The notes below the pieces were generated by a model that searched no databases, was not told the DNA's origin, and saw nothing but the letters and a program-made list of their open reading frames with translations. A stretch of 64,000 nt of DNA from Curvularia clavata (Eukaryota): contig CP089281.1 in assembly GCA_023920165.1 (NCBI GenBank), forward strand, positions 1 through 64,000, in the 5' to 3' direction. Position numbers and translations under genes: made by a program. Below, piece after piece: positions 3,420-61,404 of this stretch. How positions within the stretch are numbered: the stretch's first letter is position 1; each line of letters begins with the position of its first letter.

Positions 3420-3451
3420 TTCGAATCGCTCTCCTCAAGTACACCTACGAG

Positions 3452-4684: not shown

Positions 4685-4702
4685 TAGCCCTACTCTCCGC
4701 CC
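4657..4702 (+). promoter_or_regulatory. Putative -1 ribosomal frameshift signal
   Basis: G GAA AAA heptamer in the gag frame (4657-4663), 6-nt spacer, then stem GGGCGGAGA (4670-4678) / TCTCCGCCC (4694-4702). The pol frame is -1 and open from 4645. Confidence 0.75.
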
Positions 4703-4731
4703 ATATTGCAAGGCTAGAGCTAGAAGAGGAC

Positions 4732-7700: not shown

Positions 7701-8385
7701 CAGTGTACATTCGACTACCAAGGTCACCCCCTTCCAAGCATGCAACGGCATACACCCAAGAGGCGCAGAATGGCCCAAAGACGCCCAAACTGGGGGCGAA
7801 AACCCCCTAGCGGCAAGTACTGCCTCAAGAATAATCGAAATACAACAAGAGTGCAAGAACAATATTCTAAAAGCGCAAGAGTACCAAAAACGGCACGCAG
7901 ATAAGAAAAGACAACCCATTCCTTTTAAGGTAGGGGATAAAGTACTGCTATCTAATAAGCATATTAAATCCCTGCGACCAAAGAAGAAGATCGACTGGAA
8001 ATACGTTGGCCCAGGCACAATAACTGAGCAAATCGGCCCATCAGCATTTAAAGTAGATATGCCTGGCCTAAAAAACGTACACCCAGTGTTCCATGCATCC
8101 TTACTAGAGCAGTATCACCCCCCAGGTGATATACCACATCCTGAAGTCCCAACACAACACGAACTAGGCGAGACAGGCGACGATGTCTACCTCGTGGACA
8201 AAATAGTGGGACATAGGAAGAACAAGGACGATCAGTGGGAATACTTAGTGAAATGGACTGGATACCCCGACTCTGAAAACACATGGGAGCCAGCCGCCAA
8301 TGTTACCCAGAAAACGCTTCAAGAGTTCTGGAACAAATCAAATCAGGTCCCTCGACGCAGACGCGGGCCAAAACGGGCCAAATAG
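4732..8385 (+). CDS. pol: Pol polyprotein (protease, RT, RNase H, integrase, chromodomain); frame open from 4645
   Basis: ALIDGGS protease, YLDD RT, VDASG RNase H, H-H-C-C zinc finger, SDRG/TAYHPQTDGQTE integrase, YLVKWTGY..NTWEP chromodomain. Confidence 0.97.
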   Translation: MKTLREAMFSKPSPLLTITVQIGQDPLEALIDGGSQLNLLSIHQAKDHDLTITPIPNLVAEALSGAEFEIYGTTEVTMKVTDTRGRTKVQNIPFVVTEMKHYPVCLGMPWVDFYKPKISLRSRRVLFRGVKYVDRASYEKIATESAEEFEKTLRTPTTDVYALKVSTVMGWDPSDEEEDWEGLEKPKNAQVGPDQAKLPQLPPQYEDFADLASEEDAKCLAEHGPHDLVITLKEGTTPPHQPLYGLSKSELALLRDYLREYLARGWIRHSKSPAGAPILFAKKKDGTMRLCVDYRGLNNITLKNRHPLPLITESLDRLAEAKFYTKLDVREAYHRVRIKEGDEWKTAFRTRYGHFEYTVMPFGLTNAPAQFQAYIHHILAGLVDVSCIVYLDDILVFSNTEEEHERHVREVLNRLREAKLYLKTSKCEWHTQHTEFLGYTVSPEGISIDPDRAKTAQEWPEPRTVRDVRVFLGFMNYYRRFIANFSRIALPLTELLKKEPNAAKGGKAQRKEESVLLILDENAKSAFKTLKNSFTAVPILTHFNPDNQTRVQVDASGGAIAGILSQYVPKEACWRPVDFYSRKLIAAEYNYDTHDQELLAIVASLQHWRRYLDGIHFDLITDHRNLKWFMETKTLNHRQVRSYLALSGFDFTIVHQPGKTNPADGPSRRPDYIKAAQEPKQKNNSAYVPSLRHLLKFNAEGTAIAAATTTRSQGRQNTAAKQHEDQRHAALAQEADSETDEYTSDSCSSEEDDVAKPSPQRLKQGHSGPTVPKTAQEKAAALKQGHDDPLSGHFGARRTLEKLTRHYKWAGMRKDVEDYCKSCLICQKSTPKRHLPYGPLAPLPPPNRAWEEVTMDFITELPPSKLQGVVYDAILVIVDRLTKMAHYVPARSNWDGVDLAQAWLREVIRLHGVPRRIISDRGPLMNSTHWKTFLHYLNSKRVLTSAYHPQTDGQTERQNQTLEQYLRCYCSLEQDDWALWISVGEYAYNDSVHSTTKVTPFQACNGIHPRGAEWPKDAQTGGENPLAASTASRIIEIQQECKNNILKAQEYQKRHADKKRQPIPFKVGDKVLLSNKHIKSLRPKKKIDWKYVGPGTITEQIGPSAFKVDMPGLKNVHPVFHASLLEQYHPPGDIPHPEVPTQHELGETGDDVYLVDKIVGHRKNKDDQWEYLVKWTGYPDSENTWEPAANVTQKTLQEFWNKSNQVPRRRRGPKRAK

Positions 8386-29958: not shown

Positions 29959-30081
29959 GGTGTTTGATGACAAGAATTTCTATGCAGATTTCATGTTGGT
30001 ATTATAGTTATTGAACTCTTCATAGAAGCTCTTGATGACTTGGCTAATCTTCTGGGTAATGAACGGGGGCGTGATGCCAAT

Positions 30082-30158
30082 TATTGCTGAGTAATGCTGC
30101 TGAATAATATTGCTGAGTAATGCTGCTGAATAATACTGCTGAGTAATGTTGTTGAGTA
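30082..30158. repeat. Tandem repeat, about 26 bp x 3
   Basis: TATTGCTGAGTAATGCTGCTGAATAA repeated with variants. Confidence 0.7.
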
Positions 30159-31447
30159 ACGTGCGCCACCAGTAAGCGGCCCACCCCAGTAAGTGGCCCA
30201 CCCGACCAAACTTGACCTGACGTTCTGCGCAATTGAGCCACAACAACGTAATAAAATAAGATAAAACTTAAAAAATATAATTTATTATCTAGCTCTACAC
30301 TAAGTTCTTGTACGACCTTAAACGTGGCACTTTGTGTATGTTGGTGGCGCGCGCTGACGTCGCTGACTGCTCTCACCTTGTTCAGTCTCTATAACCACCC
30401 TTTCTACCTCTATAGCAAGCTGCTAAGCCCATCGCACCTAGAAAGCTCCACTAGAAGTGATATATTGACGGGGCTGATTCTGCTTTTATCGCTAGCGCTA
30501 ATTTTCTTTACGTAGCTTTTTGTTCTCTTCTGCGAGTATTACTACTAATTGTATTATAAGCTAAGCGCTTTTAGCAAGCTGGCGGATAGTAAAGCTTGTT
30601 GGACTCTCTAGCTGCCGCCGCAGTCGCTCTTGGAGATAGCGTACCTGCTGCTAAAGCCGCTCTACTGTATGTGGTGTCTCTGTCTACGCAGCTACCTACG
30701 CTGTAACGTTATTATCTACAGTTATCTGTGGTGGAGACGGCGTCTAGACGATAGTTAGCGACGACAGAATACGATCTAGATAAGAAAAGATAAGATCTAT
30801 TATCTGAAAGTCTAATTAGATATTCTACTACGTAAATATAGTTAGCCGGATCCGTATATAGGCTGTAAGGAAGTCTATCTTATCAATATGGTAGACGCTT
30901 TAGTAGGCGAGCTCCTTAATTTGACGTCTGTACGCGCGTTTAAGAGGAGAGTAGCAGCTTACGTCTAGAGGCTAGAGAAGATGGGAGGCATATAGCGGCA
31001 TATAGAGAGTGATAATCTTGTTCTCTGTATAATACTAGTTGAACTCTGGTATGGCGTGGCTACTATGGCCGTCTACAATAAGAAGTCGATAGACTCTAGC
31101 TGTCTGAGCCGCTGTATGCTGATTGAAATGCTTCACCTACTCTAAGCCTAGCTCGTCTGTCGTCCAGCTGTTGTCTGACACGCCGATAGTCTAGTCGAGT
31201 GGGAGGTCGCGGTACCAGCTGCTCTGATGGACTTTACTAGACAAGATTATAAACGGTAGTAGAGACTAGCTAGATGCGCTAACACACTCAATTACTGTTA
31301 CCCACTCGCGATTACCTGGCTGTATAACGACTACGCGGCCGACTCTATTAGAGCTAGTTACGACTTTTAACGTTGTAGCGACGTCTATAGCGAATCCAGT
31401 CTCATTAAAGTTGTAGATATTCTGGTTAAGAACGCCGTACGTCTGGC
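30159..31447 (-). mobile_element. RIPed pogo/Fot1 transposon, 3' part
   Basis: IYNFNETG, PGNREWVT, LLIVDGHSSH, SHLL*PLDV. Terminus TA|ACGTGCGCC.. with repeated CAGTAAG(C/T)GGCCCACCC. Cut at 31447 by an LTR. Confidence 0.88.
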
Positions 31448-32728
31448 TGTTACACGGGGTCCTACTTGTCAGTGGGAATATACTTACCTAGCCTAGATTC
31501 CGGGTTAGGGCGAGACCAGTTTCTACGAAGTATACCGTAAGATAGTTATCTAGCGATTTAGTAGTAGAGAGTAATAAAGATAGATAAAACTAATTCTATT
31601 AGAGAATAGAATAACTAAGTATCAATCTATATATAAAACAACTTATAAAAGAATACTTAATAAGTTAACTATAACGAGTATAATAATAAAATCTAATATA
31701 TTTTTATATCTATTACTTCTAGTCTTATTCTTACTATTTTTATAGAATAATCTCTATATTCTCTAAAATCTCTAAAGTCACTTTAGTCACGTATAGACTG
31801 GTAAACGGGTATTGACCCACTTTTCTTCTTTCATCAATATCTCATCAAAGACTAGTCCAAATCGAGTAATTCTGACGTCATTTTAATGCCCTAAGCTAGC
31901 GCATTCTATCATGTAATATAAAGCTAAGCCGTATCTAGCTTAGTTTAAAAGTTATTTAATAGCCCGTTTGTGAGCCCTAGGGCTGGGTTATGAGTCGGGT
32001 ATACCCCTATTTTTACTCCTTTTTTAGCTCTAGCACTAGTACTATTAGTGTTAAGCTAAAACAATATATTAGTAATATTTAGACTAGAGTGCTAGCTCTC
32101 TAATGACGTCAGAATTACTTGATTTGGACTAGTGTTGGCCAAGATAATCGATAGCCCTAGCTAAATACCCGATTTACCAGTCTAGTCACGTATAAGCGTA
32201 TCCTCATATACTAGCGTGGTTTCCTGGTCTTAGCCTAAGGCCAGTCACGTAATCGCCCTTCTGCGGGGATTATTACCTTCTAATGTATTATCTAATAGTC
32301 TTCTACCTACAGCTATCGTTAAGAAGAGATCTTTTTTTATTACTTATAACTATAGCCTTTTTGTTTCTAAAAAAGAGTAGGAGAAGATTAAAACTAAAAA
32401 GCAGCAAAAGCGTCTTAAGATTACTCGTGCTGAGGAGCGCCAGCTTTAGACTGCGATTGTAACCATGCATAGACCAAAACATACCCCAGCCAGGACAGCT
32501 GACCAAGATCCGATTGAGGGCCGGGTCAGATCCGATGAAGACCCGCCCCCAGGTATAAGTACCAGCTACCTTCCATAGATGTTCGGTAGATTTTTGATAT
32601 CCTTTCGTACCAGGCCTATGAGTGTCTACCGAATCCAAGGTGTTTCTGCTGTCCCACGCACTTCCATATGCATTTGAGTGACACTTCCCACCGGAACCGA
32701 TTCGACTAGTCTTGCTCGCGCCGTTACA
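31448..32728 (-). repeat. Probable solo LTR (TGTAAC...GTAACA on the minus strand) containing a MITE
   Basis: TG...CA termini coincide with the breakpoints of the pogo element (left) and the copia LTR (right); non-coding and RIPed. Confidence 0.55.
31794..32184. mobile_element. hAT-family MITE (391 bp)
   Basis: TIRs TAGACTGGTAAA/TTTACCAGTCTA shared with the 33090-39470 element; 8-bp TSD GTCACGTA (31786-31793, 32185-32192). Confidence 0.9.
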
Positions 32729-35067
32729 TCTACTAGCTATTCTACTACTATATATATTGGCTGGAGTAGATTCTAGAAGAATCTATCTAGTAGTAGCTTG
32801 CGTAATCTTTGGCGTCATAGACAGATGTCTATAGATCGATTATAGTCTTGATAGATCGACTATAGATTGTAGAATCCGGGTGTGACTAAGCACCCAGATT
32901 CTATCGTAGAGTAGCTGAGTAGCTTATCTACAACATAGTTAAGTTAGAAATCGCTGCTACTAGTTTACTAGGAGAGCTTTGGTGAGTCCATCTGCTATCA
33001 TTTCTGACGATTGGGTGTACGTGACTTTGATCTATCCGCTGGCGACTTCTTGTCTTAGCTAGTGGTTGTGGATATCTACGTGTTATAGCTAGACTGGTAA
33101 ATGGGCTGGGGCAGGGCTGGGGCAGGGCTGCTAAGAGTTGGGTAGGGGTAGGGCTGGGTCAGATGACTAAGCAACCCAGCCCTGCCCCTACCCAACTCTT
33201 GGCTAACCCAGCCCTACCCCAGCCCGCTTATTAGGCAACCCAGCCCTGCCCCTACCCAACTCTTGGCATTTAAGTTGGGTAGGGGCAGGGCTGGGTTAGT
33301 CAAGAGTTGGGTAGGGGCAGGGCTGGGTTGCTTAATAAGCGGGCTGGGGTAGGGCTGGGTTGCTTAGTACTAGGTTATGCTGGGTCTTAGTTATTAGATA
33401 TATATATACTCTGTATATATTAAAGACTTATTACACATAATTATTATAGTAGTAAATTAAAAATTAAGAACTTATAAAACTTTTATTTAACTTCTAGTAT
33501 ATAGCTAGTTCTTAATTATAGCTATCTCTTAATTATAAAAGCTATTAGTACTTAATACTCTATTATGAAAGCCCTCAGTACTTAATACCACCTATGCCAA
33601 GCCTATTAAGATAGTGCTTAACAAGATCCCCATCCTTCTTCTAAATAGTAACTCTCTTAGTATAGATAGCGTTTATATTATAGTCTAGATCCGTTAGCAG
33701 CTGTGATTAATATCTATAATAATATAACATATCTTTAAGAAATCTAACTAAGAAATACTCAGCAGTCTCTTAAAGACCTTCTAACGCCTCCTTCTAAATA
33801 CGTAGAGGGTGTTGCGGATATATATCTCCTATAATCTTTCTAATAAGTTTTATAAATCGAGTTCTTAGAATAAGTAGATTAGTAGACTTCTAGAATCTTT
33901 TAATCTCTTTTAGTATAATAGCTAGTAATTATTAGTCGCTTGCTATAATAAATAACTGTAATAAACTTACTACTAGGCTTAAACCTGCGCCTCTTAGAGG
34001 CGCTAGACGTAGATGGTTGAGCACCGGGCGGTGCAGGAGGGCTGGACTCGTCTTCCTTGCTGCTTTCCGACTCTTAATTCTTATTGTTGGGCTTAGGCGT
34101 GGGCGGCCTATAATTGACTGGCTGCTTACGAGCGGTTTTGCCACCTATACTATGGAATATAGTGCCAGTCCTACTATTAGTTAGCTATTACTTGTAATAA
34201 ATTACCGTGATAAACGTACGCAAAAGATACAAGATAGCCACTAGTCGAGATATGGGGTGGGGAGGGATAATTATAAGTAGTAGTCCTAGTATTTATTAGC
34301 CATTTCCTGTGATAAATTACTGTAATAAACTTATAGATTTAGTTGGCCACTTTTGGTAGAAAAAGTAGAATTACTAGTTATCTAAGCTCCCAAAACCTTA
34401 AATTTGTCTTTAAGAGCTTCTAATTCGCGAGGTGATAGTAGCTGAGACACCTGTCTTTTAGGCGATGGGAGCACATTTAACCGTTCTGCCATCTCCTCAA
34501 ACGACTTATCGTCTGGCCCCCCCACCTCGTCTACTGCTAATATAGTACGTAATAAATCTCTATAATAACTAGTAGGGTTGAGTTAAGAAATTTAGCGTTA
34601 GGCTGGGAAAGTTAGATTTGGATTGAGAGGATTGGTGGATAAATACTTAGCTATAGAATAGTTGAGAATTTTAGGGATATATAAGTAGATAAAGGTGAAG
34701 GTGAAAGTGAGTGCACGGATCACCTAGGGTCTTGCTAAGGGTCTGCGAGATAGTTAGCAAGAAATCGCCATAACTTAATAAAGTAGTAATTAAATACTAT
34801 AATAACTGGCTCGTTAGATAGAGCTACTCTAGGGCTTTTAAATGAGACTAAAATTAAAGCGCTCTAACTTTTATTATCTAAGATATTGGCTGTATAAAAG
34901 ATATTGTTCGCTAGCCTAACGCTAGCGCGAAATCCAGAGCGCACGGACCCCTAATTACCTTAATAGGTAGACTATTACCAAACTTCCTACTCTCTCTTAG
35001 TAACCATCTCTCTCCTCCCTACCCCTATCATACTAGACGTTATATTAGTACTTTATCACAGTCAATA

Positions 35068-36263
35068 ATGCCGCGCACGCTAGAAATTAAGCGCGAGTCT
35101 ACGACAGAGGCTGATGGCGACGTACCTAAAGATCTAGCACCTCTACGCGTTGTCTAAATACCTAAGGACTTTACTAAGTAGGAGTAGGTAGATTTTACTA
35201 AAGTAATAATTCTAGTCTATTATCACAGTAAATACTAACGTTAGTAGGGCTTTGAAAATAAGTAAGACGAGATTAATTTTATTATTGTGTAATGTAGATC
35301 TAGAGGTTCCTAAAAGAGTTGTCTAACTAGTCTACAAGTCCAATATTAAGGTCAGCTTAGTAATATAGCTCGAGCTATTACACAGAGAGATCTCGCCGCG
35401 TCACGTACTGAGGAAGAAGCCGCTCTCCAACGCGCTAAAGATGCTGACCGCGCTGCTCAGGCGAAATTTCTTAAGTTACTTAAAGAGAAAGAATGGTATA
35501 AGACCGCTGAAGAGGATAAGAAGGATAGGATTATAAAGAGCCATTTTAAAAAGCATAAATCTAAGCGCTTTAAAGAAAAGCGAAATAGTAAGTTATTACA
35601 GTCTTTTATCATAGACATCTACTAACAGTTATTAGCTAATTGGATGGCGTTTGCTCTCTAAGCTGTGCACGCGAAATGGTCCAAGATCTAGAATAAGATC
35701 GACAAAAGACGGTATTAGCTTATTCTCTAGACTACCTCTAGCGACGCCCCATCTAATACCTCTACTAAGGGGTTACGCGTTTCTGCTCGTCTCTATAGTT
35801 GAAAGGGGGTTATTAACTTACTTATACGCAAAGAATATCTTTAAGAATTGGCTAAGCTAAATAACAACGCCTTTAAGAGCGAGCAAGCACGAGATAAGTG
35901 GCTTAAGTTTTGCGAGAACCTTTCTCCTAAGGAAAAAGAACTTGCTATAGATAGTTTCTAGTAGTAAGTTTATTATAGTTTATTATTATATTTAAGAACT
36001 AACTAGTATAGACAAGAAGAGCCTACTTCTATTCTTGACTAGTTTAATCTAGATACGCATCTTAAGGATAATAAGCTATATATTGAGGGCTATAGTAGTG
36101 ACGAGTGTGAAGAAGAGGTTGATAATAAAGATGAGATTATGGACGAGGATGAGGATGGCTATAGTAGTAATAATAGCTTTTTGGCTCTAGAGGGGGCTAA
36201 TAGTGCTAAGATAGAGGAGGCTGAGGATCAAGACGAAAAGGCTAAAGAAGAGAAGTCTAAGTA
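35068..36263 (+). pseudogene. Accessory intron-containing gene in the hAT element with acidic C-terminus, function unknown
   Basis: ATG at 35068, coding-like charged segments separated by GTAAGT..CTAAC..AG introns, D/E-rich tract at about 36090-36250, RIP stops. Confidence 0.5.
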
Positions 36264-36561
36264 GTGCTAGCTATCCAAGCATATCTCTGACAATGCTCTA
36301 GTAGTTAGAGTTTAGAGTATTATACCAGGGTTTATTCTAGCTAATAATTATAGTATAACCTCTGTGTTAATCTAAACTTTCTCTTATATAAAATCTACTT
36401 TAGATATATATTAAATAACACTAGTATTTTAGACAATCTTAGCTATGCTAGAAGCTAGAGGACTTAGAACTTCCTACTATATCTAGTTTTCTATAGATAA
36501 TATTTATCTATCTAGTAACTTTAATTTATTATAGTTATTTATCACAGGTACAATCTTCACG

Positions 36562-39172
36562 ATGGCTGAGCCTCCTACAGAACCGCTAGATATCCTTGCG
36601 CATTTTAAGATAAATGCTCTATACCAAGACAAAGGTGGTCTTAAAGTCACACTTACACTCGTCTAGTATCTAGTACTTAAAAATAATAGCAATAAAGAGA
36701 ATAAAGCAATTATTTTAAACTAGAAGAAGTAGTAGAATAAAACACCATAGGCCCGAGATCCTTCGAAGCCAGTTCCACACTAGGGCTCTTCTTATCGTAC
36801 GAGCCAAATCTAAGTAAACTTTGGAGAGGCTGTAGAGGTCCTAACTAGCCATCTATATATCTTCTGCTCGAACTGCAGTTATATACTCGCGCACCCATCA
36901 GCTGGAAATATTAGTATAAAGCATCTTTATAGACATCATCAAACCCAGACTTGCCAGCTTATCTCTTCGCCTATACACAACGAGCTATTGAACTCACTCC
37001 ACTAAAGTATCCCACCGCTAATAAATATTAATCCTCGCGCAATACCAGCCTACTTAACTAAGATATACGAACAAGAATTAGTAAGAGTAGTAGTTAATAA
37101 CTACTAGAGCTTCCGAACACTTAAGCGGCCATCATTTCAACGATTTCTCTAGTTTCTCCAGCCCAACGCTGTGATTATTAGCCGTTATAAATTCAAGCTA
37201 GCGTTTGAGTTACAATTTGAGAAGGCTTCAGCTGAGCTTCTCAATAATCTTAGCTAAGAAATAAAAATATCACTTGCATTAGATGGTTGGGCTTCAAGTA
37301 ACTATCTTAGTTTCCTTATAATCAAAGGTTACTATATCAATACTCAATAGCAACTTAAAGAAAAGCTTTTAGATTTTATACCGATCCGTGGGAGACATAC
37401 TAGAGCTTTAATAGCAGATAAAGTTCTGAAACTTCTTTCTAGAAGTAAACTCCAAAAAAAATTGCTATCCATTACTTGCGATAATGCTAGCAATAATAGC
37501 ACTCTTACACAGTCTCTTCAGCAAGGTCTACAACAACTTGGTATAAGCTGGAGTCCAAATGAAAACACTATTCCCTGCTTAGCCCATATTATCAACCTCG
37601 TTGTCTAGAATATTATCCAGCACTTAAGGCTGTCAGCTTCTACCAAGTTAGATAATATACAAGATTTGCAGAGACAACAGATTAATGAAGTAGATGCCAA
37701 CATCTCAGTCCCCAATTCACTTCGCAAGGGAAGAATTTTTTATCACAGTTATTTATCACATACTAACTACAATATATATAGATTAGAGCAATCTGCATTA
37801 TAGTTGACTCATCTCCTCAGCGATACGAACGGTTTCTCGCAATACAACGGGATCTACCACCAAAAAAACGCCTTAGTGTTATCCGTGATGTTAGAATATG
37901 ATGGAACTCGACATATAATATGTGTGAGCGCGCAGTCAAGCTTCGGCAATATATCGATAAATGGCTTAAAGATGAGATCGCGTTAAGGGTTCCTATCTAT
38001 ACCAAAAACCTCTCAGAGGCCGATAATAATACTAATATTGATTCTCGGGATCTTAAGAGACTACGACTATCTGCACAAGAATGGTCGCATCTTAAGATGG
38101 TTACTGAAATGCTTAGCCATTTCAAGACTGCAATAATGTCTCTAAGTTAGAGTCGAAAACCTCAAATACCATATATCTAGCTCATATATAATTAGCTTTT
38201 TGATTTTCTTAATCAGATGGAGATTAATTTAGGAGAAGACTCAGAGAATAGCAACTGGCTACAAGTGGTGAGAGCTGCGGCGGCGAAAGGGAGGGCAAAG
38301 TTGAGTAAATACTACTCGAAAACTGATAAAGAGCGTGGCTTCTTATTTAACTGCGCGACGATTCTTGATCTAACGCAAAAGCTTACAGCCTACGAGGTAT
38401 TATTACAGATATTTATTACAGATAGATACTAATAGAAGATATAAAATAAGACATAGGAGTTTCAAGATAAGCATATCTACTAGCAGTAGTTTCTTGATTA
38501 TCTAGCTCGATATAATAATCAAGAAATTATACAGTCAACACTAAGCTTATTTCCTTAGAGGGTATTAAGCACAGAATGGTTTCGAAGGCCTACTTTACTT
38601 CGATCATAATTAAGCTAGATTTCTCTTTCAAGCCAAGATTCTTTAAGCTAGGAAATTGAGGAGAGTAGAGGGCCAACCTATCAAGAAGGGGAGCTATATC
38701 TAAGCAGCCCTAGTATTAATCTACGGGAATATATCGATATTTTAGAGTGGTGGAAAGCAAGTAAGATTACGTACCCCCACCTTGCCTAAGTTGCAAAAGA
38801 TATTCTAGCTATACCAATTGCGTAAGTAGGTATAGAAAGAGTTTTTAGTATTGCTAAGGAAGTTATTAGTGATCGTCAACATCAGCTTTCTGCTAAAAAG
38901 ATTCGATAACTTATGATTCTTAAATTTGCGAATTCTAATAAGATGGAGAGTCTTAATAGAGACTTGGACGAGCCTATAGAGGAAGCTACCTAACTTTCTA
39001 ATAATATTAGTAATTTGTTTGAGCTCCCAGCAGGTATAGAGGAGTATGGGAGTTAGTGTTAGAGTCAGGATATAAAAGAATCTCTAGAGGAAGTGGATGA
39101 GGTAGAGGACAAGTTACCACTTCCTCCACGAAAGCGTGTCCGCCCTGCGCGCTACCGTAATAGTCAACTATA
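36562..39172 (+). pseudogene. hAT transposase
   Basis: CSNC..H zinc finger, SLALDGW, ITCDNASNN, IPCLAHIINL, WNST and dimerisation motif ILEWWK..YPHLA..DILAIP..ERVFS. Confidence 0.92.
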
Positions 39173-42100
39173 ATAAATCCTATTAGTTTTATCTTAAAAT
39201 TCTTTTTAAAGCTACTATGATAATAAACTGTGATAAATTCAAATCTTTTCTAGCCTAAAGTTATTCGTAACCTAGCTAGGCAGGCTATACCTAGCCCTAC
39301 CTCTACCCGACTCTTTAGTAACCTAGCCCTACCCTAGCCCAAGTGCCAAGCAACCCAGCCCTGCCCCAGCCCAACTCTTAGCAGCCCTAGCCCTACCCCA
39401 GCCCGAGTCTCTATAGCCCCAAGCCCTACCCCAACCCGAGCCGGGTGCCCCATACCCATTTACCAGTCTAGTTATAGCTTAGTCTGGAGTCTTAATATCT
39501 CCTAAGTAACTAGCTTTATAGTTTGTTGATTATTGTATTAGATTTTAATCTAATCTAGTAGGTTAATTTTGAGTTCTTTGATCAGTCTTAACGTAAAGAT
39601 AGCTTCCTTAGCTACTTGCGATAGAGCTAGGAGTTCAGCTTTAGTGGTGGACGTAGTGACTATATCTTGCTTGCTGGCTCGCCAGGCGATTAGTCCACTA
39701 AATAGCTTAATCGTGTAGCCTTAGGAGCTTCTGCGATCTAGTATATTGTCCGCAAATAATATGTTACTAGCTACTTGCATAGAGTTGCCCGACCTTAGCT
39801 GCAGCGCTAGGTGCTTAGTTTCTTCGAGGTAGAGTAGCACTCGATCTGCAGCTCTCTAGTGTTTCTGGCTAGGATTGGAGAGAAATCTAGCTAAGCGGGA
39901 TGTTGCAAAGGCAATATCCGGCCAAGTATTGACTGCTGTATAGAGTAGGGATCTAATCTTGCGCTGGTATTTGTTAATTTCTAGTAGAGTAGCCAGCCTA
40001 TTTCTGGGCTTCAGCTCAGCACTGCCTATAGGGGTATCGTGCTAGATAGTCCGATTCTCAGCCAGTTAGCTAATCTTCTTATAGTAGGCACTTTGGGATA
40101 GGTGGATAAGTCGATTCTCTCGGTCTCTCCTCACTTCAATTCTAAGGAACCACTGGATATCGTCTCTACTAGTTATTAAGTAAGTCTTTCTGAGATCTTC
40201 TACTAGGGTGCTAGCCTTATATAGCTAGTTTCGATTATAGACTATATTAAAATCGTCCATATAGAAGAAGATTAGAGTACTATCCTTAATTATACAGTAT
40301 AGCTCATAGGGTACAGTCTGAAACCCAAGCTTAGTGAGCGTTGCTGTAAAGTCTCGTTGCCACAACGCTGGCGATATCCGCAGCCCATAGAGTGCTTTTT
40401 GGAGCTTGAGTATAGTACCTAGCTTCTAATATCCATAGGGCATACGCATGTACACTTCTCTGTCGAGTTGGGCGTGCACAAACGCATTAGTAACGTCGAA
40501 CTGCTTGACTTCAAGGTCATATTTGGTAGTAATTGCCATGAATAGACGGAAAGACTGTCCAGCTAGGGTAGCCGCGTAGGTGTCTTGAGAGGTAATATTC
40601 CACTGCTAATCGCCCCTAACTACCAGTCGTGCCTTGCACTTAAGAAACTAGTTTTCTTAATTAAATTTGTAGGTGAAGACCCACATACAGTCTAGGATCT
40701 AATATCCGCTTGCCTTGACTGCCTTGTGTGGTACTTCTACCCACGACTTAGTAATCTTATGGCTGTCTAGATGAGCGCGTTGCGCCTCTTTGAATAGCTC
40801 GCCCATTGGATGCTCGTCTAGATCTGATCTAGCTGTCGGCGGCTCAGGGAGTTGAGATTGATAGATTTTAACTCCTTTGGCTAGTAGTCGTTTGAGCTGC
40901 GCCTTATCAATCGCGCTGCCATTGTGATCTCCAATACTTCCGGCTTCTGTTCCAGCCATAAAAGCTGCGGCCCATAGGACTGTTCTTGACGATTGGATTT
41001 CTGGAGCGCCTGCCGCTTCTCCACTCATAAGCTAAGCCAGTAGTGCTACTGGTAGTGGAGTGGCTAGAGGCGTTAGATAGTGCTCCTGAATCTTTCTTCC
41101 CATGTAGTAGCCTGGTGGATCTTCTGATTCGTTGATCTCTTCTATTACGTTGATGGTATCATCTTCATGAAATGACTCCATACCTATGTCTAGGATTAGT
41201 GGTGGGAGCTCAATAGTCCTAACGTATACTACAATCTCTAATAGAGTACTATGCATAAAGCTGTCCATCAGGTCTTCGACTTTCCCATCAAATATCATAT
41301 CTTCGTCGAAGATCACATCTCTAGTACTGATAACTTTAGCCAGTGATAGAATCCAGATCTGATAGATTATTAACGCTTGATATCCGACTAGATAGCCAAC
41401 CTATGCCTTAGAATCAAGCCTCTAGAGTCTTAATTTGCCGCAGTGGGTATTATCAGTCATTACAAACGCCTTACACCCATATACCTTAAGGTGAGCTAGT
41501 TTAGGCTTCTTTAGCGGTGTCGCCATCCTATTAGCCTAGGAAACATAGGTGAAGAAGACTTCATAGGGTGTCTTCCACTAATTGACGTAGTTTGGCGTTC
41601 AATTATATAGGTATACCGCGGCTCGCGTGACCTCTGGCCAGAGTTCCCATAGTAGATTAGCGTCTAACCGTATTGCGCACGCCTTCTCCTTATTCACACC
41701 CCCTGAGCGTTCAGCGCCGCCATTTTATGCTTAAGTATCTGGCGCTAATGGCTCGACAGTGATACCCTGTGCTTGGAGCCAGCGCATTACTTCAGGCTTG
41801 ACAGTCGCGATCTCGTTGTCAGTTTCGACGACCTTAGGCGTGATATTATATTGATTTTGGAGGAATTTAAGGAAGTTGGTAAGTACTTTAATAATGGATT
41901 TGGCCGTCCGATTGTTAGTAAGATAGAAATCCTATTAGAATCGTGAGTGCTTGTCTATAATTAATAGCTGTGATAACTCCTTATTATAGGATTGCTTCTC
42001 ATAGCTATGGAAATCAATCGTTATCCTATCACCAGGTTTCTGATCATTTGTCCGAGGAGCGCGACTAATCTGTCGGCGGATTTTTGCTCTCCCACACGCG

Positions 42101-52425: not shown

Positions 52426-55400
52426 TCACAGTTACCGAACTAAAGAAGTATAAGATCAAGTGGCTGATAAGATGCCCTTATATCAGTACTTTCTATGCGT
52501 TAAAGTCTTGCACCCAAATATACATGCTAGACCACGTTTCGTACAATTGCCACAATGGCACAGCAACGCCAGCCGAGTGCTAGACTGCCCAGCAGAAAAT
52601 ATGCAAGCCATCGCATGGTCATCCCTTGGAGCTAAGTAGAATTGTAAGGATATTCTATGGTTGTCATTTAGCTAATAACAGGGGTTGTGGCACTGCTCGT
52701 GCGTAAGGGGCTGCATCGAGTTGCATACGCAATCATGACTCAATAATGCTGCAATCGAGTCCTCCCTCCATCAACAAGTAGTCATTTTAGTTCGTCACTG
52801 AAAAGACAGCTTCTAAGAGTTCACCCTGCCCGCGTTATTAATACAGCAGGCCCAGATCGGATAGTATCGCAGGAAAAGCAGCACAGCAAGGCGAATCGTG
52901 GGGCTGAGCTGGACGGCTCTAACTCGGGTAACCTGATCGTATTCAAAGAACCTAGATCGTGCGCTCTGACTGATCGGTTCTTCATAAAGCTCTCCAAAGC
53001 ACACACACTATCATACAACACATGGCAGGTAAGATATTATTTATCCCTGCTAATCTCTGCATCTGCGCCGACGGGCGAGTTTGAAAACGGGAATAGTAGA
53101 GACCACTGTATTTTTTTTGTTTTTTTTTGCAACGTAGAAATCATACTTGACATAGAAAGCTTTCCGTAGCGTAGCACTCTGTAATTCCCAGATAGACTTT
53201 CCCAACTCTAACAGTTCTCTATCAAAATTCGATAATGCCTAATCCGCAATACCATAGGATATATAGCAGTTATTTCTTAACTTTTTATCGCTTCCAAACG
53301 TTGCTATGTACCAATCTTCTTTCCAAAAGATTACAGAGGCTTAAAGTTATAGGCTCCGCGTTTATATTCGCTCAGCAACAATATAGAACGAGGACCTAAC
53401 TGCATACTTTCTCTTGGCTTGAACAGCTGCAATAACGAAAATCTTCTTAGAGTGTAAAGTAACAAGCCTATATCACAGGCTTCGAGCTTGTGTAGTAGGG
53501 TTAAGGTTTAACTATCTTGTCTAACACGCCAAAGCGCCAGTACAAGTTGACTTGCTAGTAACCGCCATGCCTCCCGTTTCTCGCGATACTCCGCTCTAAG
53601 ATGCGTTCACAGAATCTGACCGTTGCAAAAGACCAGATCAAAAGCTTCGCCATATAAAGAACAGTTAAACACAAAGTTAGCAGCATTAGAATATTCCGTC
53701 GGGATATTAGTAACATCCGTCTAATCTACTAGCATTATAGTATCGAGAAAACGCGCTCGTATCTTTAGATCACTTTGTTAATTAGGAAGTATTATATTAT
53801 GGCCGCCTCAGGATACAGGAAGACTGATTTCGTACAACCTAGAATAGCAGTTTTTTAACGACAGAGGCCGTGAAACCGCCAGGCGTCATGCAGAGATCAA
53901 GGATGGCGGGGTTTGTGATATATGACGGCGTTGATGGCAGAGCTGAAGTTATCTCGTGAAGCGTGTCGAAAATCTGGCACATGATATTGTTTAATATACG
54001 TTTTCCAGATTTATTTGCATAATCTACTCGATTCTATTGTAATCTATGTAAAATGATCATCCTCTTAGGGATTCTTCAATCCCTAATCATGCGATCATAA
54101 CGATGCATAAACAATCTTTTGACGAGACTTACCCTGCGCCGAAGACCTGTGAACTCCATGAATATGGCTGGCTGCTTGATGCAGTAGTCTCTAATAGCAG
54201 AATCAGGGCAAGGGGTTGATTACTCAGTCTGTGAGATCTTTTGGTTCACACCCTTGAAGATTTCATTTTGTAGCTGATTGATAAGCACACTCTTCAGACG
54301 AGTGTTCAGTAACGTTTAGCCTGAAGGTGTGGAGGTCGCAGACATCTTTGGCACCGGGAGTTTAGACATGGCATGCTTTTGATAGCCATTTTCTTTACCT
54401 CACTTGTATTTTGCATGAACGTTTGGAAAGAAAATCAGCGCTTCGGCCTGACATGTGTCACTGCGCTACTGGATATCTCGTAAGCCACAGTTACACAACA
54501 GCCTTCGCATGCATACATCAATGCATGGCGTGATCCTCGTCGATATGATGATTCGTGAACATTGGTGACCCCAAAATTCAAGCTGTAGTATATCCACGTA
54601 GTCTGGAGAATTTTGACTTACATCGGAGACGCGATGTGGCGATAGAGGTTGAACATATATCTTGATAGTTTCTTGTTCGGTTAAGCAGGAGAGGCAAAGT
54701 CACAAGCCTAATCAGCAACAAGCTATAGACCGCATTTCGAATGTTTATTTGATGCAAATTAACACATGGAAGCATTTTCAGGAACTCATTTATGAATGTT
54801 CTTATTGAATATTCGAGACTCCAGGTAGTCGCTAGGGGTAGCAAGCCACCTAAATTGCGCGTAGATGTACTTTGAAGACATAGTTTACAGCAAACCTGCC
54901 AGTTGCATTCTGACACATTATAGCCTTTGTTTTTTTGTTTTTTTTTGCACAAAATTAGTTGTCCATGTCATCCAAGCCTTCCTTTGTGGGAACTCGTTGC
55001 ATCGCGATATCTTTCAAGACATCCGAAACTCTCTTATTTGGAGGGAGAGGTCATCTTCGTAAAATTCATGTTGAATGAAACGAATAGCGCCCTCAATAAG
55101 CTGCAGTCTAAGGTCGGTGCGTTTAGCGAAACAAAGTCCATGTTTAGTGTGCATAAAACCTTGCGTGCTTTTAGCCACTTCCTTTAACTTCCGGTCGACG
55201 ATCGATATCTGCGCTCTGTAACAGCAGCCGTATATAAGGAATTAAAAGCGGTGACAAGTCTTGCTAAAAGTCGGCTGTCATTAATACCTGAGTTCATCCA
55301 GTGTATGCAATTGAGAGACGATAGTGAGATCTCAATATACACGGGAGCAGCCACCTCCGAACCAAGTCGGCGCTGAAAGAAATACTACTCCAAACTGACT

Positions 55401-55566
55401 TGCACTAATCGTTTTACACTAGGGCATGGATACTAGAAATAGTTCATAATACGACCAAATAGATCTAGCACTTCAAACAAACAACAAACGCGCAATCCAG
55501 CTAAAATAACACTATATTATAACTCCATATAACGTTGCGATAGGTCATCTCGTAGTACACCCAAAT

Positions 55567-56250
55567 TCAAAAAGAAACATACTCCAAGCATAGATTACTC
55601 TTATCTGTCTCCAAAAGACGCCTTACCAGTGCTACCCGCTCCCCCAAATCTTTAATAGCATTAGGTAGAACGCTATACGAGATTTTATACTCCCTTAGCA
55701 TAACAAAGAACGCTTCATTCAATACCTTCCACCTTACTATATCCTAATACTTCAACCTCACTTTGTCTGCGCTTAGCCACTCTATATTACCAGCCTCGCA
55801 AACTACTACTATAGCCTATTGCATTATCAACCTTAACTTTGCCCACTTTTTCGTGCTTGCTAGTGCTCTAAAAGCATTAATTCCCGTATATTCTTTCGTA
55901 TATACTAGCGTATCTAGTGCTGATCGATCTGCCAAGAACCACCGGTCCTTCAGCTGTTCTTCAATTTAATTTTATCTTAGCAAAATATGCATCTACAACT
56001 AGAGTCCTCGAACGCTATTATATAAGTCTTTTGCTTAAAATTCCTTTTTATACATTACGACTCGAACGACTTCTTCGACGATAAATGGCTGCTTGATAGG
56101 ATGAGATGCTGGGTTGTGGTTGGAGTAGAACGTCCTCAGTGCGTTAAGAAGAGTTGTTTTCCCACTGCACTGAGGTCCTATTAAGTAGAGATTCGATTGT
56201 CTTGGGGACCCGCTTCTGTTGGTGATGGTTTCAACGCTCGTAGAAATTAT
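55567..56250 (-). pseudogene. AAA_28 (NadR/Ttd14-like) P-loop nucleoside/nucleotide kinase-like gene, RIPed
   Basis: One 228-codon frame: NLYLIGPQCSGKTTLL, IVEEVVR, WFLADRSALDTLVY, VCEAG..WL; ATA start and RIP-type stops. Confidence 0.8.
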
Positions 56251-56436
56251 GATAGCAGTGTCCTGGTAGGGCTCAGTCGCTCGCTTAGATTCACTATTTC
56301 ATAGCATTCAATCGGCCTAAGAAGCCATATAGTTACTGTTAAATTCAATTAACTTATTTAGAAGTGTATGGCGTACTTCGCGGCTCGCAATATCAAACAA
56401 CCTGCATTTAGCCGGCCACTTGTTGGTCTCATGATC

Positions 56437-57399
56437 TTACCACTGTAGGTCTCGTTTATTTAGTCCACATGTACCGGCTGGCCTAGCCCAGTCGTACACT
56501 CCTCTACGATCCCTGAAAGCCTTCTCGTCCCAGTATACGCTTTGAAGTGCTTTTTCAACCCTAATGTCAAGGATTGATCCAGATGGCTGACGCCTGTCGC
56601 GGTCTAAAAATCTCAAGTACTCGTCGAGAATCAAATACGACTTGGCCATTACTCGGTTAGACTCTGGCACAAGTGATGTCTGGTTCTCATGTCGCCTACA
56701 AAAGCTGTCGTATTCTTTATCCGTAATAGTAAACTTGCGGGCGTCTCGAAGTGTCGCCTCGGAGTCGTTTTCCCCTGTGACAACTAAGACTTAGAAGTAT
56801 TTCCAGCGAAAAGGCTGAAGCTGATCGATCTGTCTATTCATATCTTCATTCTAATTGAGGTGACATACTACAGTGTTGATCTTAAACTTTATACCAAATT
56901 TCTTGCACCAAGAAGCAATCTTGTACAGCTGCGAGATCTGATCGCCGGATCTACAGCCAATCGCGATGTTGGTAGACTCGTTAAAAGAATTACACGAAAC
57001 CGCCAAGATATTAATCTTAGAACCGCACTGCCGAAAGAAGCTTTTCTTGACAAGACTTCCATTTGTAACGATAGAGACCGATTCGAGTTGTAATTTATCT
57101 TTGTAGAAAATCACCATCTCAGCTAGAAACTTTAGATAAAGGAATGGCTCTCTACTAGCGAAATTCAGCTTTCGTATGCCTGCTTTTTTGAGCAATGCAA
57201 GCCCTTTCTTTACGCGACTGGAACTTTCTACGAAAGAGGAGGTGGCAGTATAAAAGCAGAATCTACATGTTTTATTGTAGCGCCTCGTAAAGTGATAGTT
57301 AACAGCTATAGGGTATATAGCGCGACGGTGTTTGTAACGTAGGTATAAGGACGTGATACTGAGTAGCAGTAGTCCAAAGTAGATTGAGATGGAGTTCAT
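56437..57399 (-). pseudogene. RSAD2: Viperin (radical SAM ddhNTP synthase), RIPed
   Basis: VNYHFTRR(Y)NKTCRFCF, KLNFA(SR)EPFL, SIVTNGS, ILAVSC, FKINTVV, PFRWK, PESNRVMAKSYLILDEYLRFLD, RRGVYDW; N-terminal hydrophobic anchor; in-frame stops at 56851-56853 and 56791-56793. Confidence 0.95.
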
Positions 57400-57608
57400 T
57401 GTTGGAGCGTGAAACAAGAAATGGAATGGAGGAAGTAGGTAGAGTGCTGAAGATTTTTATCTGCTGCTATAGAATTTAATGATGTCTATTGATGCTATTT
57501 ACTGATGACGTGGGTATAACCCCGCTTTTGCGAGACATAAATAGAGGGCTGTGAACTCTTGTCGTCAGATAGTATTCTTTCCCCAGGCTAGTATCCTTAG
57601 AAATTGCC

Positions 57609-58348
57609 ATAGAGACTACTACAACAATTATCATATTCGTTATTGGTAAGTATGCGAGATTGTAAGTACGCGACTAATATTCACAGGAGCTCCTAGTTCT
57701 AGCAAGAGCACGCTATGCCGAAGACTTTCTGACAAATATAGATTCTATCACTTATCTATTAGAGATACGTTGAGGAGACTTATCTCCAACTCCATAATAG
57801 ACCCAATTGTATCATCCCAGGTGTAAAGAGGCGAGCTCGTTTCTATAGAGGTATTGGTCAATATTCTCCAAAATATTGTTAAGGAAAATTTACAAAGCGG
57901 CCGCCGCGTGATCCTAGCAGATGGTTTGCCAAGGCATCTAAATTAGGCTATACATATGGAAGAGAAAGTTAGTGTGTCTAACTGCTAATAGTCTCCCTTA
58001 CTATACTTACTTAGAAAGATCGGCTCGCCAGTATTAGTCCTGTTCTTTAACTATCGAGAAGAGGTCGCTAAAAATCGCTTTCTCACGCGAAAACTATCTA
58101 GAAGAGAAGCAGATAATGCGGTCGTCTTCTAGAAGAGATACGATAAGTTCGCTGCGGAGAACCCTAAGATCTTAGAGATGTATAATGAACGAGGCCTTCT
58201 TATTAAAGTAAGACTTATTGTGTAGTGCTTAGCAATGCTAAATAGTAGTTAGGTTGATACTAACGGAGAGACGGAGATTTCGTATAAAACTGTAATAAAT
58301 AGTCTACGTAATACAGAATTAGTATATTTTCTCGTAAAGACAATATAG
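57609..58348 (+). pseudogene. Adenylate/UMP-CMP kinase family gene, RIPed, spliced
   Basis: IIFVIG|APSSSKSTLC..FYHLSIRDTLR (RIP-derived from GAPGSGKGT..HLSIGD.LR), ILADGLPR (DGFPR), R.DN..KR; first intron 57646-57686. Confidence 0.88.
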
Positions 58349-58547
58349 GGTACATATCAAATAGATAGTCGAAAGATACAATATATGGAACAGGAGGCAA
58401 ATTTGTTGATCACGTGACAGTTACCGAGCGTTTCCTTCAGATGCGGCTCAATTAGCTTCCTAGAAGATCAATACCACTACGCTGCTTTGCACTCATACCT
58501 TGCCTCTTTCTTTCTAAAGCTTGCAGTCATAAATCATAGCGCCTTCC

Positions 58548-59186
58548 ATGTTTCCAAAAGCTATATCCCAAATCTTTCTTCTAGAGATAGAGCGCAAGTT
58601 TTGCGGGCTCGCAGTCACAGATCTTACCCTTCACGCCAGAAACCCGCCATTCCAGAGCATCCAGCAACAAAGCCAGCGCATATTCAAGGACACTTACTTC
58701 GACCGAGCTGGACTCCTCACAGCAGCAGGTGTGTAGGTCAGGCTACGCAATAGACAATAGGAAGCCAAAGTGAGAAAGGGTGGCAACTTCCAAAACTCGA
58801 GGTTCGAGGAGCTGTCTAACCCTTGCGAAATTAGTGTGCAAGTACGCACTATTACGGGACGAGTGTGCAGCGAGCGCGAGTTTTTCAGTCTCAATCCCAT
58901 TGCGACCATGTGCACGACAAGAAGAACGTGGCTGGCAGACGACAGGTTCACAATCGTGCTAGACACAATAGACTTTGGACACGAGGTCGGCGAGGTCGAG
59001 CTGCAGTCCGAGATGCGTCTCGCTCATACGGGCCAAGAGCTGGACAACCACAAGCAGAGGGCAATACAGCAGATAGACGAAGATATTGTTGCTTTCATGG
59101 AACATTATCGGTGGGCGTTTGCTGCTGGTGTGCCAATAGGAAAGCTGACAGCATACTTTGAACGCAAGGCCGCAGGCAGGCTGTAG
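58548..59186 (+). pseudogene. CYTH / thiamine-triphosphatase-like tunnel metalloenzyme, RIP stops
   Basis: LEIERKF (ExExK), DTYFD, GV*VRLR, EAK, TTRRTW, IVLD..FGHEVGEVEL; two TAG stops at likely Trp positions. Confidence 0.85.
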
Positions 59187-60151
59187 ATATGAAGCAAGGC
59201 TGCATATTGAGTCACCGTTGATGCGCTAAGCTGTATTCGGTTATTTGCGAACATGACATGTCGCAACACACGCTTTGCGTTAGCGTCGTAGGGCATTTTT
59301 AGTAACTACCATATGAGCAGGTAGAACTTCCTCCAGAGCAGTTATCTTCATACACTTTGCCAGCCACTGTTCACCAAGAATAGGTTTGTTTGGTCTGCGT
59401 TCCACAATTATTACCGTCTCTTCTATTTTGCATCAAGCCATAAAGAATGCAATAAGCATATGTTGCTACTAGTTATGACTGTGAGCCCGAGAACATGTCC
59501 TGAAAGAGATGTGACAAGACCTCGCAAATGTAACAAACTACTTCAACTTTTCAGTCAGGCTATAAGACAAGCGTATGGGAGCTTTTGAATCACGAGAATG
59601 TCGAATGATTCGACACGCGCAAGGATATTTCATGAATTTTGCATATGGTACTTAGCGACCTCTTTCTATCGACTGATCTAGCTCGTCTAGAAAGACTCCA
59701 ACCGACGGCTAGTCTGGATGCTTACAACGAATGAAATTTACAAGAATCTCATTTTATTGTCTCTCACTGTTCATTAGTGAAAAGTATGATTGGATTGCCG
59801 CAGTGATAAATTGGATAGCATGTAAATACCAGCAATTCAAACTATGGTGCAATAAATGGTTGCTTCAAGGAAAGAACATTGTAACCAGCATGTCAACATG
59901 GCAAAATTGACATTGTTTGCGCAATTCTTTTAAAATTATAAGACAACCTACACGAATTCTTCAATTTACTATAGGTTCCTCTTCTCTTCCTTTCCATGCT
60001 CATATTTTCCTGTTACTTTGCACTATTCCTACTCTACATGAGTTCTGAACATTATCTTAAGAGACTGAGGAATTAGCGCTCATCGTTAATAACGACTGAC
60101 TTGAAGACAAAAATAGATGCATAGAGATTAGCTGGTATCTTATCTTACCTT

Positions 60152-60400
60152 CTACAGCGTCGGAGTCAAAAGCACGGCAGCACACGCAGCCTGACAGGTA
60201 CCAAAGGCAGTGTTGCAAGCAATGATACTAGCAGGCGCGGAAGCACCAAGCGTAGCTCCCCAAGTGAAACCAGCTGCAGAGTAGCATGCCATAACTACTG
60301 CAGAACAACCCGCCTGACACAATCCATAGGCGGCTGGTCCTGCTGAAGCTGGAATAACAAAAGCAAGAGTGATTATAGCAACGGAGAGTGATAATGCCAT
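60152..60400 (-). CDS. Small secreted cysteine-rich protein (82 aa)
   Basis: Signal peptide, then GPAAYGLCQAGC..CYSAAG..CNTAFGTCQAAC with six Cys. Confidence 0.85.
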   Translation of the reverse strand: MALSLSVAIITLAFVIPASAGPAAYGLCQAGCSAVVMACYSAAGFTWGATLGASAPASIIACNTAFGTCQAACAAVLLTPTL

Positions 60401-60412
60401 GATGTGAATGTG

Positions 60413-60532
60413 AAGGTTGAGGTGGATGTAAAGGTTGAGGTGGATGTAAAGGTTGAGGTGGATGTAAAGGTTGAGGTGGATGTAAAGGTTGAGGTGGATG
60501 TAAAGGTTGAGGTGGATATAAAGGTTGAGGTG
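60413..60532. repeat. 18-bp minisatellite, about 6.7 copies
   Basis: AAGGTTGAGGTGGATGTA tandem array. Confidence 0.95.
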
Positions 60533-61404
60533 AAGGCTCAAACATAAACAAGCGTGAGAGTGGGTAGAGAAGTCAGTGGAACCCTTAAACTATCACGTTA
60601 GGCGAAAAACCACCCCAACAATACGTGATCCTTGACCATACAAGCATGATGACGACAAATGCTGTTGCACAGATTTCGATCCACCACCAGCATGTCTGGG
60701 GGGCTGCATTAGTGCAAAATTCGATGAAGTAATTTCAACCCCAACACCCGCCATACCCCACAGTTCCACTCCCGGAATCTCCAATGGATGAAGCTGCTGT
60801 AGCCCCCCAACGAAGGGGCTATATTAAACCTGTAAAGCTTAGACTTAACAGCGTTACCTCTTCCTTGGCGTGTTTGAAAATACTAAAGGTTTTGCTATGG
60901 TATCTCCTTCATTACAGAAAATGTTGTCTTCTACTGGTTTGTTGATGCATATGACTTGATCGAAGTGCTCATATAGCTCTAGCGATGATTTACTAATTAT
61001 CCTCAGCCTAGATCAAGCCTATCAAACCGGTGTTTCGATCCTGTTTTGCTGTGAATTCAGAAACAACTCAATTTACTATGACGTACTACATGCTTCAAGG
61101 ACGAAATGAGTAATACGATCGCGGTGATTATACTCTATTTTTTGCCGGGATGCTTACCGACGTAGGAATGCATGACACATAGCGCTGAAATTCCACAGAC
61201 CCGCGGTCGGTAAATGACCAATTACAATGGCCATATATTCACCCATTACCCGGCGATTCTTTGTAAGGTAGCGAACAACATCTACAGATTGTTTATCATT
61301 GACTTATGGAACCAGACAATTCTTTCTACAAGGTCGCGTGCACTACTACAATGAACGCGGATACAGTCCAGAATAGGCGCCCTGAAGTACGCTGGTCTTT
61401 CACT

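Follow-up and report, generated by a model that had tools for sequence, protein, structure and literature searches.

Viperin is among the few immune enzymes common to bacteria, fungi, and animals, and a helper kinase is so far the sole partner tied to it by linkage. The closest described systems are the vertebrate RSAD2–CMPK2 pair and the pairing of viperin with a CMPK1-type kinase in fungi, which is described in the preprint of Shomar et al. (bioRxiv 10.1101/2023.09.13.557418). As reported there, the main product of two fungal viperins, one from Trichoderma virens and one from an Aspergillus species, was 3′-deoxy-3′,4′-didehydro-UTP (ddhUTP). Both the viperin–kinase linkage in fungi and the synthesis of ddhUTP by fungal viperins are already published. 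Prokaryotic viperins (pVips) are found alone, associated with a kinase, or fused to one (PADLOC PDLC02903-5). The locus described here lies in the first 64,000 nucleotides of contig CP089281.1 of the fungus Curvularia clavata (assembly GCA_023920165.1), a stretch that is referred to as the window. It holds genes for a viperin, a nucleoside monophosphate (NMP) kinase, a CYTH protein of the 25-kDa thiamine triphosphatase (THTPA) family, and an AAA_28 P-loop protein. The locus is almost certainly a copy of a conserved viperin/kinase/CYTH trio that was inactivated by repeat-induced point mutation (RIP). Our reading as a whole, namely a RIP-inactivated allele of a conserved module in which the CYTH protein hydrolyzes a triphosphate of the pathway, is one that we favor with some reservation.

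The locus resembles the published viperin–kinase systems in that its viperin stands head-to-head with a URA6/CMPK1/AK1-type NMP kinase and carries an N-terminal hydrophobic tail. It differs from the published pair by a THTPA-family CYTH protein as third recurrent member and by AAA_28 as an occasional fourth, and the copy in the window is dead. A literature search found no study of a CYTH or thiamine triphosphatase partner of viperin, although the supplementary tables of Shomar et al. may hold more; for viperin together with a triphosphatase, that preprint was the only relevant one among the matches listed. New from the window are the AAA_28 gene as fourth member, the RIP-killed state, and the contrast with the open alleles of other isolates.

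Genes were delimited from stop-to-stop open reading frames (ORFs) combined with frame-by-frame reading, and they were translated through stops, each stop being written as X. In each of the four genes the stops interrupt one single frame. An earlier note on this DNA had placed four nucleotide-handling genes within positions 55567–59186, and they were found there (Table 1), AAA_28 and viperin on the minus strand followed by the kinase and CYTH on the plus strand. The gaps of about 190–210 bp that it gave are likewise accurate and amount to 186 bp between the AAA_28 start and the viperin stop, 209 bp between the viperin and kinase starts, and about 199 bp between the kinase end and the CYTH start. 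Its description of the genes as two divergent pairs has to be corrected, as a single head-to-head junction, between viperin and kinase, is flanked by two co-directional pairs. The domain assignments of the note are borne out in three cases by the Pfam cut-offs, with read-through scores of 35.2 bits on Radical_SAM for viperin (cut-off 29.5), 60.2 bits on ADK (PF00406, cut-off 26.8) for the kinase, and 57.8 bits on PF13521 (cut-off 27) for AAA_28, which also shows the Walker A motif GPQCSGKT. The CYTH translation of the window, in contrast, gave no Pfam match at E ≤ 0.001; it carries LEIERKF and DTIDFGHEVGEVE, and its assignment was secured by other means that are described below.

The viperin read-through is 78% identical to the intact protein P0002 over 320 residues. 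P0002 matches the solved viperins with an E-value of 1e-141 and scores 253 bits on NF038283 (cut-off 180) and 386 bits on TIGR04278, which is under the cut-off of 450. For a kinase orthologue, the best solved relative is yeast uridylate kinase (URA6, 1uky), and the linked kinase scores about equally to the AK1 and the UMP-CMP kinase families. The fungal viperin-linked kinases are of the CMPK1 type according to Shomar et al.

The conservation of the module was surveyed in metagenome contigs that were scanned with an alignment of fungal viperins, which yielded 80 loci, or 68 after removal of redundancy at 97%. Two sets were defined: a flanked set of 38 loci with at least 2 kb of total flank, in which the ORFs within 7 kb of viperin were clustered, and a well-flanked set of 20 loci whose flank measures 3 kb or more on each side. 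Besides viperin itself and alternative-frame echoes, only two neighbor families recur in the flanked set, the NMP kinase in 23 loci and CYTH in 22. No transporter, no further phosphatase, and no other gene recurs beside viperin in these 38 loci. Among the well-flanked loci, the kinase is present in 17, CYTH in 16, both in 14, and neither in one. In 16 of the 20 well-flanked loci, CYTH and viperin are no more than about 4 kb apart, a frequency at which the pairing is not due to chance. Of the 17 well-flanked loci that bear the kinase, 16 have it head-to-head with viperin, whereas the placement of CYTH varies: it is found past the kinase, either pointing the same way, which is the arrangement of the window, or the opposite way, just downstream of viperin, or head-to-head with viperin. 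The last arrangement occurs where no kinase was detected (L064 and L065). Since CYTH takes varied positions and orientations, its linkage to viperin has outlived rearrangement. Four very AT-rich loci (15–18% GC) show neither partner; their flank is 3–10 kb on one side and less than 400 bp on the other.

The same linkage is seen in named genomes. In Rhinocladiella mackenziei, the locus tags Z518_04931 and Z518_04933 denote CYTH and viperin, respectively. Viperin and CYTH are located on contigs of identical length in bp in Glonium, Melanomma, Periconia, Phaeosphaeriaceae sp., Amniculicola, Cucurbitaria, Parastagonospora, and Aspergillus ibericus, and a 584-residue gene model of Mycothermus thermophilus fuses the CYTH N-terminus into viperin. 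The named genomes with linkage span the Dothideomycetes, Eurotiomycetes, and Sordariomycetes, three classes of the Pezizomycotina. The best matches of the more divergent metagenome loci among 38 named proteins did not place these loci in any taxon and gave no ground for assigning them to the Basidiomycota or to other phyla. The earlier idea of viperin in a conserved multi-gene nucleotide module is thus borne out by the kinase and CYTH counts of the well-flanked loci together with these genomes. Synteny of all four genes in other fungi, which the note had made a test of its proposal, holds in part: viperin, kinase, and CYTH are linked, and AAA_28 joins them in a few lineages only.

Two of the surveyed loci are recorded here for their unusual features. 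The viperin of L064 (2932–4811 of that contig) scores 341 bits to mouse viperin versus 296 bits to the fungal structures. The C-terminal tail known from animal THTPA is present in the CYTH protein of the same locus, whose gene is head-to-head with viperin at a distance of about 240 bp, with no kinase nearby. L081 (3950–6942) is filed as a bacterial metagenome-assembled chromosome of Lapillicoccus sp. (6.65 Mb). Its viperin is 63% identical to the fungal ones, its kinase extends over two ORFs in an intron-like manner, its CYTH protein is THTPA-like, and the arrangement is the fungal one; L081 is probably eukaryotic DNA.

The pVips belong to the same family as the fungal viperins (P0002 scores 230 bits to a pVip), and the logic of viperin plus kinase is common to them and the fungal module. 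The partners differ. Kinases near the sampled pVips are of the thymidylate-kinase type and occur in 4 of 23 loci. In 61 prokaryotic viperin loci that were fetched with the same viperin query, no THTPA-like CYTH, AAA_28, or AK1-type kinase was found. A Pfam CYTH match was likewise absent from 86 of the 126 ORFs near prokaryotic viperins, the 40 that were left out being mostly the longest or outermost ones together with all of those in L085.

Pfam CYTH (PF01928, cut-off 23.2) detects the CYTH proteins unevenly: the window copy and L003 give no match, L073 reaches 21.4 bits, and L017 reaches 36.6 bits. The CYTH call of the earlier note is nonetheless supported: the window copy is 54% identical to an intact orthologue, and human and mouse thiamine triphosphatase are matched over their full length, with an E-value of 4e-24, by a profile built from 19 orthologues. 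The next match of this profile is an archaeal CYTH protein at 1e-4. The tunnel columns E, E, K, D, Y, D, R, R, K, E, R, D, and ExE are invariant in all 19 sequences, and the catalytic set of ExExK, Y, RxR, K, D, and ExE is kept in all of them as well. Judged by these alignments, the CYTH proteins are fungal members of a family that is regarded as animal. In UniRef and JGI they are named “thiamine-triphosphatase” by homology alone. A 2021 review by Bettendorff (PMC8615392) places the activity in metazoans and states that no specific thiamine triphosphatase has been identified in fungi. Mammalian THTPA (PDB 3bhd, 5a64, and 2jmu) and the fungal proteins have in common, beyond the full-length homology, the ExExK motif, the dyad of Tyr and Lys, the Trp that stacks, and the acidic ligands of the metal. 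In contrast to mammalian THTPA, the CYTH protein described here is fungal and genetically tied to viperin. The conserved stacking aromatic fits a ring-bearing organic triphosphate as the substrate, which could be ddhUTP or, equally, thiamine triphosphate (ThTP).

Some of the CYTH proteins additionally carry an N-terminal extension of 25–35 residues before ExExK (L006:4186–4953, L034:1939–2652, L035:7071–7790, and L064:2932–3684, as well as residues 1–35 of P0040). The extensions are rich in Arg, Ser, and Thr, are nearly devoid of acidic residues, and resemble a mitochondrial presequence. The window copy and others are without an extension.

All four genes in the window are pseudogenes, and the cluster cannot act here. 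In AAA_28, both candidate start codons read ATA, the close relative L001 having MM where the window has II in the alignment, and seven internal stops interrupt the read-through. Viperin contains two internal stops. Among 124 columns that are invariant across 15 fungal viperins, 13 are changed in the window; all 13 changes are derivable by C>T or G>A alone. They include the loss of the first cysteine of the CxxxCxxC motif (C41Y). In the NFAGGEPF motif, GG is converted to SR. Relatives combine an open frame with an intact CxxxCxxC, whereas the window has neither. The kinase starts with ATA in place of the ATG of the relative L002, contains three exonic stops, and has a P-loop that reads GAPSSSKS, in which glycines are turned to serines. 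In CYTH, two Trp codons read TAG (58734–58736 and 58758–58760).

The damage looks like RIP, and the RIP that the earlier note had assumed is supported by dinucleotide indices, by directional substitutions, and by their CpA/TpG context. The composite RIP index lies between +0.08 and +0.61 at 55.0–58.8 kb and between −0.4 and −0.7 in the flanks. Compared with the intact relative L002, which is 81% identical at the DNA level, the window shows 115 C>T and G>A changes and 51 that run the opposite way. Of the former, 55 fall in a CpA/TpG context, and of the latter, 7.

Other isolates supply a second comparison. The sequencing runs X6 and X11 come from other studies under the same organism label and are tentatively taken to be RNA; the DNA runs X1 and X2, from which the sequence of the window probably derives, were also compared. 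Contigs from X6 and X11 cover 57286–57728 and 58004–59573, where they match the window at 92–97% identity; nothing covers 55000–57285, and the contigs are uninformative on expression. With the window letter given first, the window differs from X6 by 59 A>G and T>C changes and by 12 in the reverse direction. Positions 58735 and 58759 are G in X6 as well as in X11, and with this letter both CYTH stops become TGG. Other isolates with the same label thus keep at least the CYTH gene open, and the isolate of the window carries a mutated allele. The cluster is so dispensable that RIP could destroy it in this one isolate.

The copy that triggered RIP was searched for as well. No duplicated partner was found in the window, and none of at least 80% likeness was found in the X1 and X2 contigs, a threshold that a paralogue below 80% would escape. 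The stretch is present once in both DNA runs. It is possible that the partner copy has since disappeared or that the mutations spread in from repeats in the vicinity.

A metagenome contig of a close relative (L001:6–1772) contains a viperin-then-AAA_28 pair that is likewise decayed. Its viperin has four internal stops and its AAA_28 two stops downstream of the start, and one TAG at AAA_28 codon 110 of the read-through is common to L001 and the window. Owing to this shared decay, the loss of viperin and AAA_28 is either old or recurrent in the lineage.

The window demonstrates that the cluster can gain a fourth, kinase-like gene. AAA_28 is found in only one of the 38 flanked loci, L017, of which L016 is a redundant copy; in both, a stretch of about 3.5 kb contains the complete set of four genes, and the L017 protein scores 78.9 bits on PF13521. 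It is also found beside viperin in the short contig L001. In a gene model of Alternaria panax (P0003) viperin runs on into AAA_28, and in Periconia macrospinosa viperin, CYTH, and AAA_28 are all on a contig of 8,288 bp. As a member of the module, AAA_28 is therefore upheld for the lineage of the window and a few others, but not in general. The window copy is 75% identical to AAA_28 of Bipolaris maydis (P0247), aligned across the stops. The family is a widespread fungal “NadR/Ttd14 AAA domain” group, labeled nicotinamide riboside kinase in JGI, and AAA_28 agrees with NadR/Ttd14 P-loop proteins in its PF13521 membership and Walker A motif. A sequence search in the PDB gave no match for AAA_28. 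A confident structure model of an orthologue (pLDDT 86.8) has its nearest folds in the cytidine kinase AbmG (8j5f), deoxyadenosine kinases (2jaq), NadR (6gyf/8x7f), and thymidylate kinases. The TM scores of 0.6–0.71 point to a kinase-like fold, but the sequence identity to the solved kinases is only 14–16%, and on this model “P-loop kinase-like” is a fair label for the protein.

In the proposed mechanism, viperin would convert UTP to the chain terminator ddhUTP by radical-SAM (S-adenosylmethionine) chemistry. The divergent URA6/AK1-type UMP-CMP kinase would raise the level of UDP, and hence of UTP, in the pyrimidine nucleotide supply. Subsequently, the CYTH protein would remove phosphate from the organic triphosphate product. 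That it acts on a triphosphate of the pathway, most likely ddhUTP, has about an even chance of being right. The hydrolysis would limit self-poisoning of host RNA synthesis or else convert the product. Where AAA_28 is present, it may supply the step from nucleoside to NMP by phosphorylating a nucleoside upstream of the NMP kinase.

Several points weigh against this mechanism. CYTH is missing in 4 and the kinase in 3 of the 20 well-flanked loci. The loci share a common descent, several of them being near relatives (L034–L036; L037 and L040), and the counts therefore overstate their independence. The review of Bettendorff describes a catalytic dyad of Tyr-39 and Lys-65 and base stacking by Trp-53 in mammalian THTPA. 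Equivalents of Tyr-39 and of Lys-65 occur in all 19 fungal CYTH sequences, and that of Trp-53 in 16, with Tyr in two and TAG in the window copy. Because these residues of catalysis and specificity are kept, ThTP stays among the possible substrates. In the preprint of Shomar et al., fungal viperins yield ddhUTP in a heterologous host without the kinase, CYTH, or AAA_28 partners, so CYTH is not needed for the synthesis. The roles assigned to CYTH and AAA_28 in the ddh-nucleotide pathway are putative. Birds still have viperin. They have lost THTPA according to the review (PMC8615392), and the pairing of viperin with THTPA is therefore not obligatory in animals.

In one alternative, CYTH is a true thiamine triphosphatase. 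In this case it would clear ThTP that arises as a side product of an AK1-type kinase co-induced with viperin, and it would not act on ddh-nucleotides. Human and mouse THTPA are the best solved relatives of CYTH by the profile match given above, counterparts of the Tyr and Lys for catalysis and of the Trp for specificity are conserved, and the linked kinase is as close to AK1 as to UMP-CMP kinases. The review reports that cytosolic adenylate kinase phosphorylates thiamine diphosphate to ThTP, but it also regards this side reaction of AK1 as probably physiologically irrelevant. The gene order argues against a tie to the kinase: with 3.8–10 kb of flank on both sides, L064 and L065 have CYTH directly beside viperin and no detected kinase, and in many loci CYTH is closer to viperin than to the kinase. 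No kinase is seen in L030, L034, and L036 either, although one or both of their flanks are short. We consider it unlikely that CYTH serves thiamine metabolism in this way.

In a second alternative, the cluster would be a small pathway for a secreted ddh-uridine nucleoside that is directed against competitors, instead of cell-autonomous antiviral immunity. The kinases would feed viperin, and CYTH would start the dephosphorylation that is needed for export. The compact, co-regulated-looking layout is like that of fungal metabolite clusters, a phosphate-removing enzyme is a conserved member, and the nearest fold to that modeled for AAA_28 belongs to AbmG, which acts as a cytidine kinase in the pathway of a nucleoside antibiotic. 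Against this alternative, neither a transporter nor a further phosphatase nor any other gene recurs in the flanked loci. A CYTH triphosphatase, moreover, would typically remove one phosphate or pyrophosphate and alone would yield no nucleoside. Such a secretion pathway appears improbable.

It is very unlikely that the linkage of CYTH and AAA_28 to viperin is merely inherited gene order without functional coupling, for although the loci share ancestry, AAA_28 is limited to few lineages, and CYTH is missing in the four well-flanked loci noted above, CYTH stays near viperin through rearrangements (whether it is placed past the kinase, pointing either way, or on the upstream or downstream side of viperin), down to viperin identities of about 50%, and even beside the animal-type viperin of L064, and fungal gene order is not usually conserved at such distances.

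If CYTH does cleave a triphosphate of the pathway, a second conserved partner of viperin would point to an unstudied step, the control or disposal of the cell's own chain terminator. The thiamine triphosphatase family, which the review regards as unidentified in fungi, would likewise gain a role that can be tested. A further-reaching proposal is that the 25-kDa thiamine triphosphatases originated as a third component of the viperin system in eukaryotes and have kept this place in fungi, acting as triphosphatases on the ddh-nucleoside triphosphates made by viperin and setting the level or fate of the antiviral nucleotide. We regard this proposal as speculative and rather doubtful. If it were true, animal THTPA, with ThTP as a substrate that has no settled role, would descend from an enzyme of an immune pathway. 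The head-to-head arrangement of CYTH and an animal-type viperin in L064 gives a hint that the link predates the fungal viperins of the Dikarya type.

Table 1. Features of the viperin locus in the window (empty cells, no entry; “.”, no strand).
Feature	Positions	Strand	Basis
AAA_28 P-loop protein (NadR/Ttd14-type, predicted nucleoside-kinase-like fold), pseudogene	55567–56250	−	PF13521 match on read-through
Viperin (radical-SAM ddhNTP synthase), pseudogene, one exon	56437–57399	−	Radical_SAM match, homology to P0002
Viperin/kinase intergenic region, 209 bp, head-to-head, presumed shared promoter	57400–57608	.	
URA6/AK1-type UMP-CMP kinase, pseudogene with introns; exon 1 at 57609–57645; 3′ end uncertain	57609–~58348	+	PF00406
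CYTH protein, 25-kDa thiamine-triphosphatase (THTPA) family, pseudogene, one exon	58548–59186	+	Orthologue alignment and profile
RIP-like block, fading within the CYTH gene	55000–58800	.	Composition and substitution pattern

Counts of 7- and 8-mers in 22 stretches between viperin and kinase revealed no shared promoter motif, and the only recurring words stem from the coding ends that were included. At the 3′ end of the kinase, the X6 and X11 contigs skip 50 bases (58307/58358) with the ends GT..AT, and the last exon may differ from the model. They also skip 64 bases (58433/58498) just upstream of the CYTH start. The ends of this skip, CT..AC, correspond to a GT..AG intron signature on the minus strand, which points either to an antisense transcript over CYTH that is spliced or to an indel of 64 bp that distinguishes the isolates.

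Further repeats and genes surround the locus. An apparently intact Ty3/gypsy retrotransposon is located at 3410–8382 on the plus strand of the window and consists of a gag ORF with a zinc knuckle followed by an uninterrupted pol of 1,246 residues (reverse transcriptase, RNase H, integrase, and chromodomain). AT-rich, RIP-like relics with an integrase and other retroelement pieces occupy 1–3000 and 30000–41400. Together with the retrotransposon, they place the viperin cluster in a repeat-rich, patchily mutated region. Just outside the cluster, at 60152–60589 on the minus strand, an ORF has an upstream part of 18-base repeats that encode HLNLYI about seven times, followed by a short Cys-rich part that resembles a signal peptide; it possibly encodes a small secreted protein.

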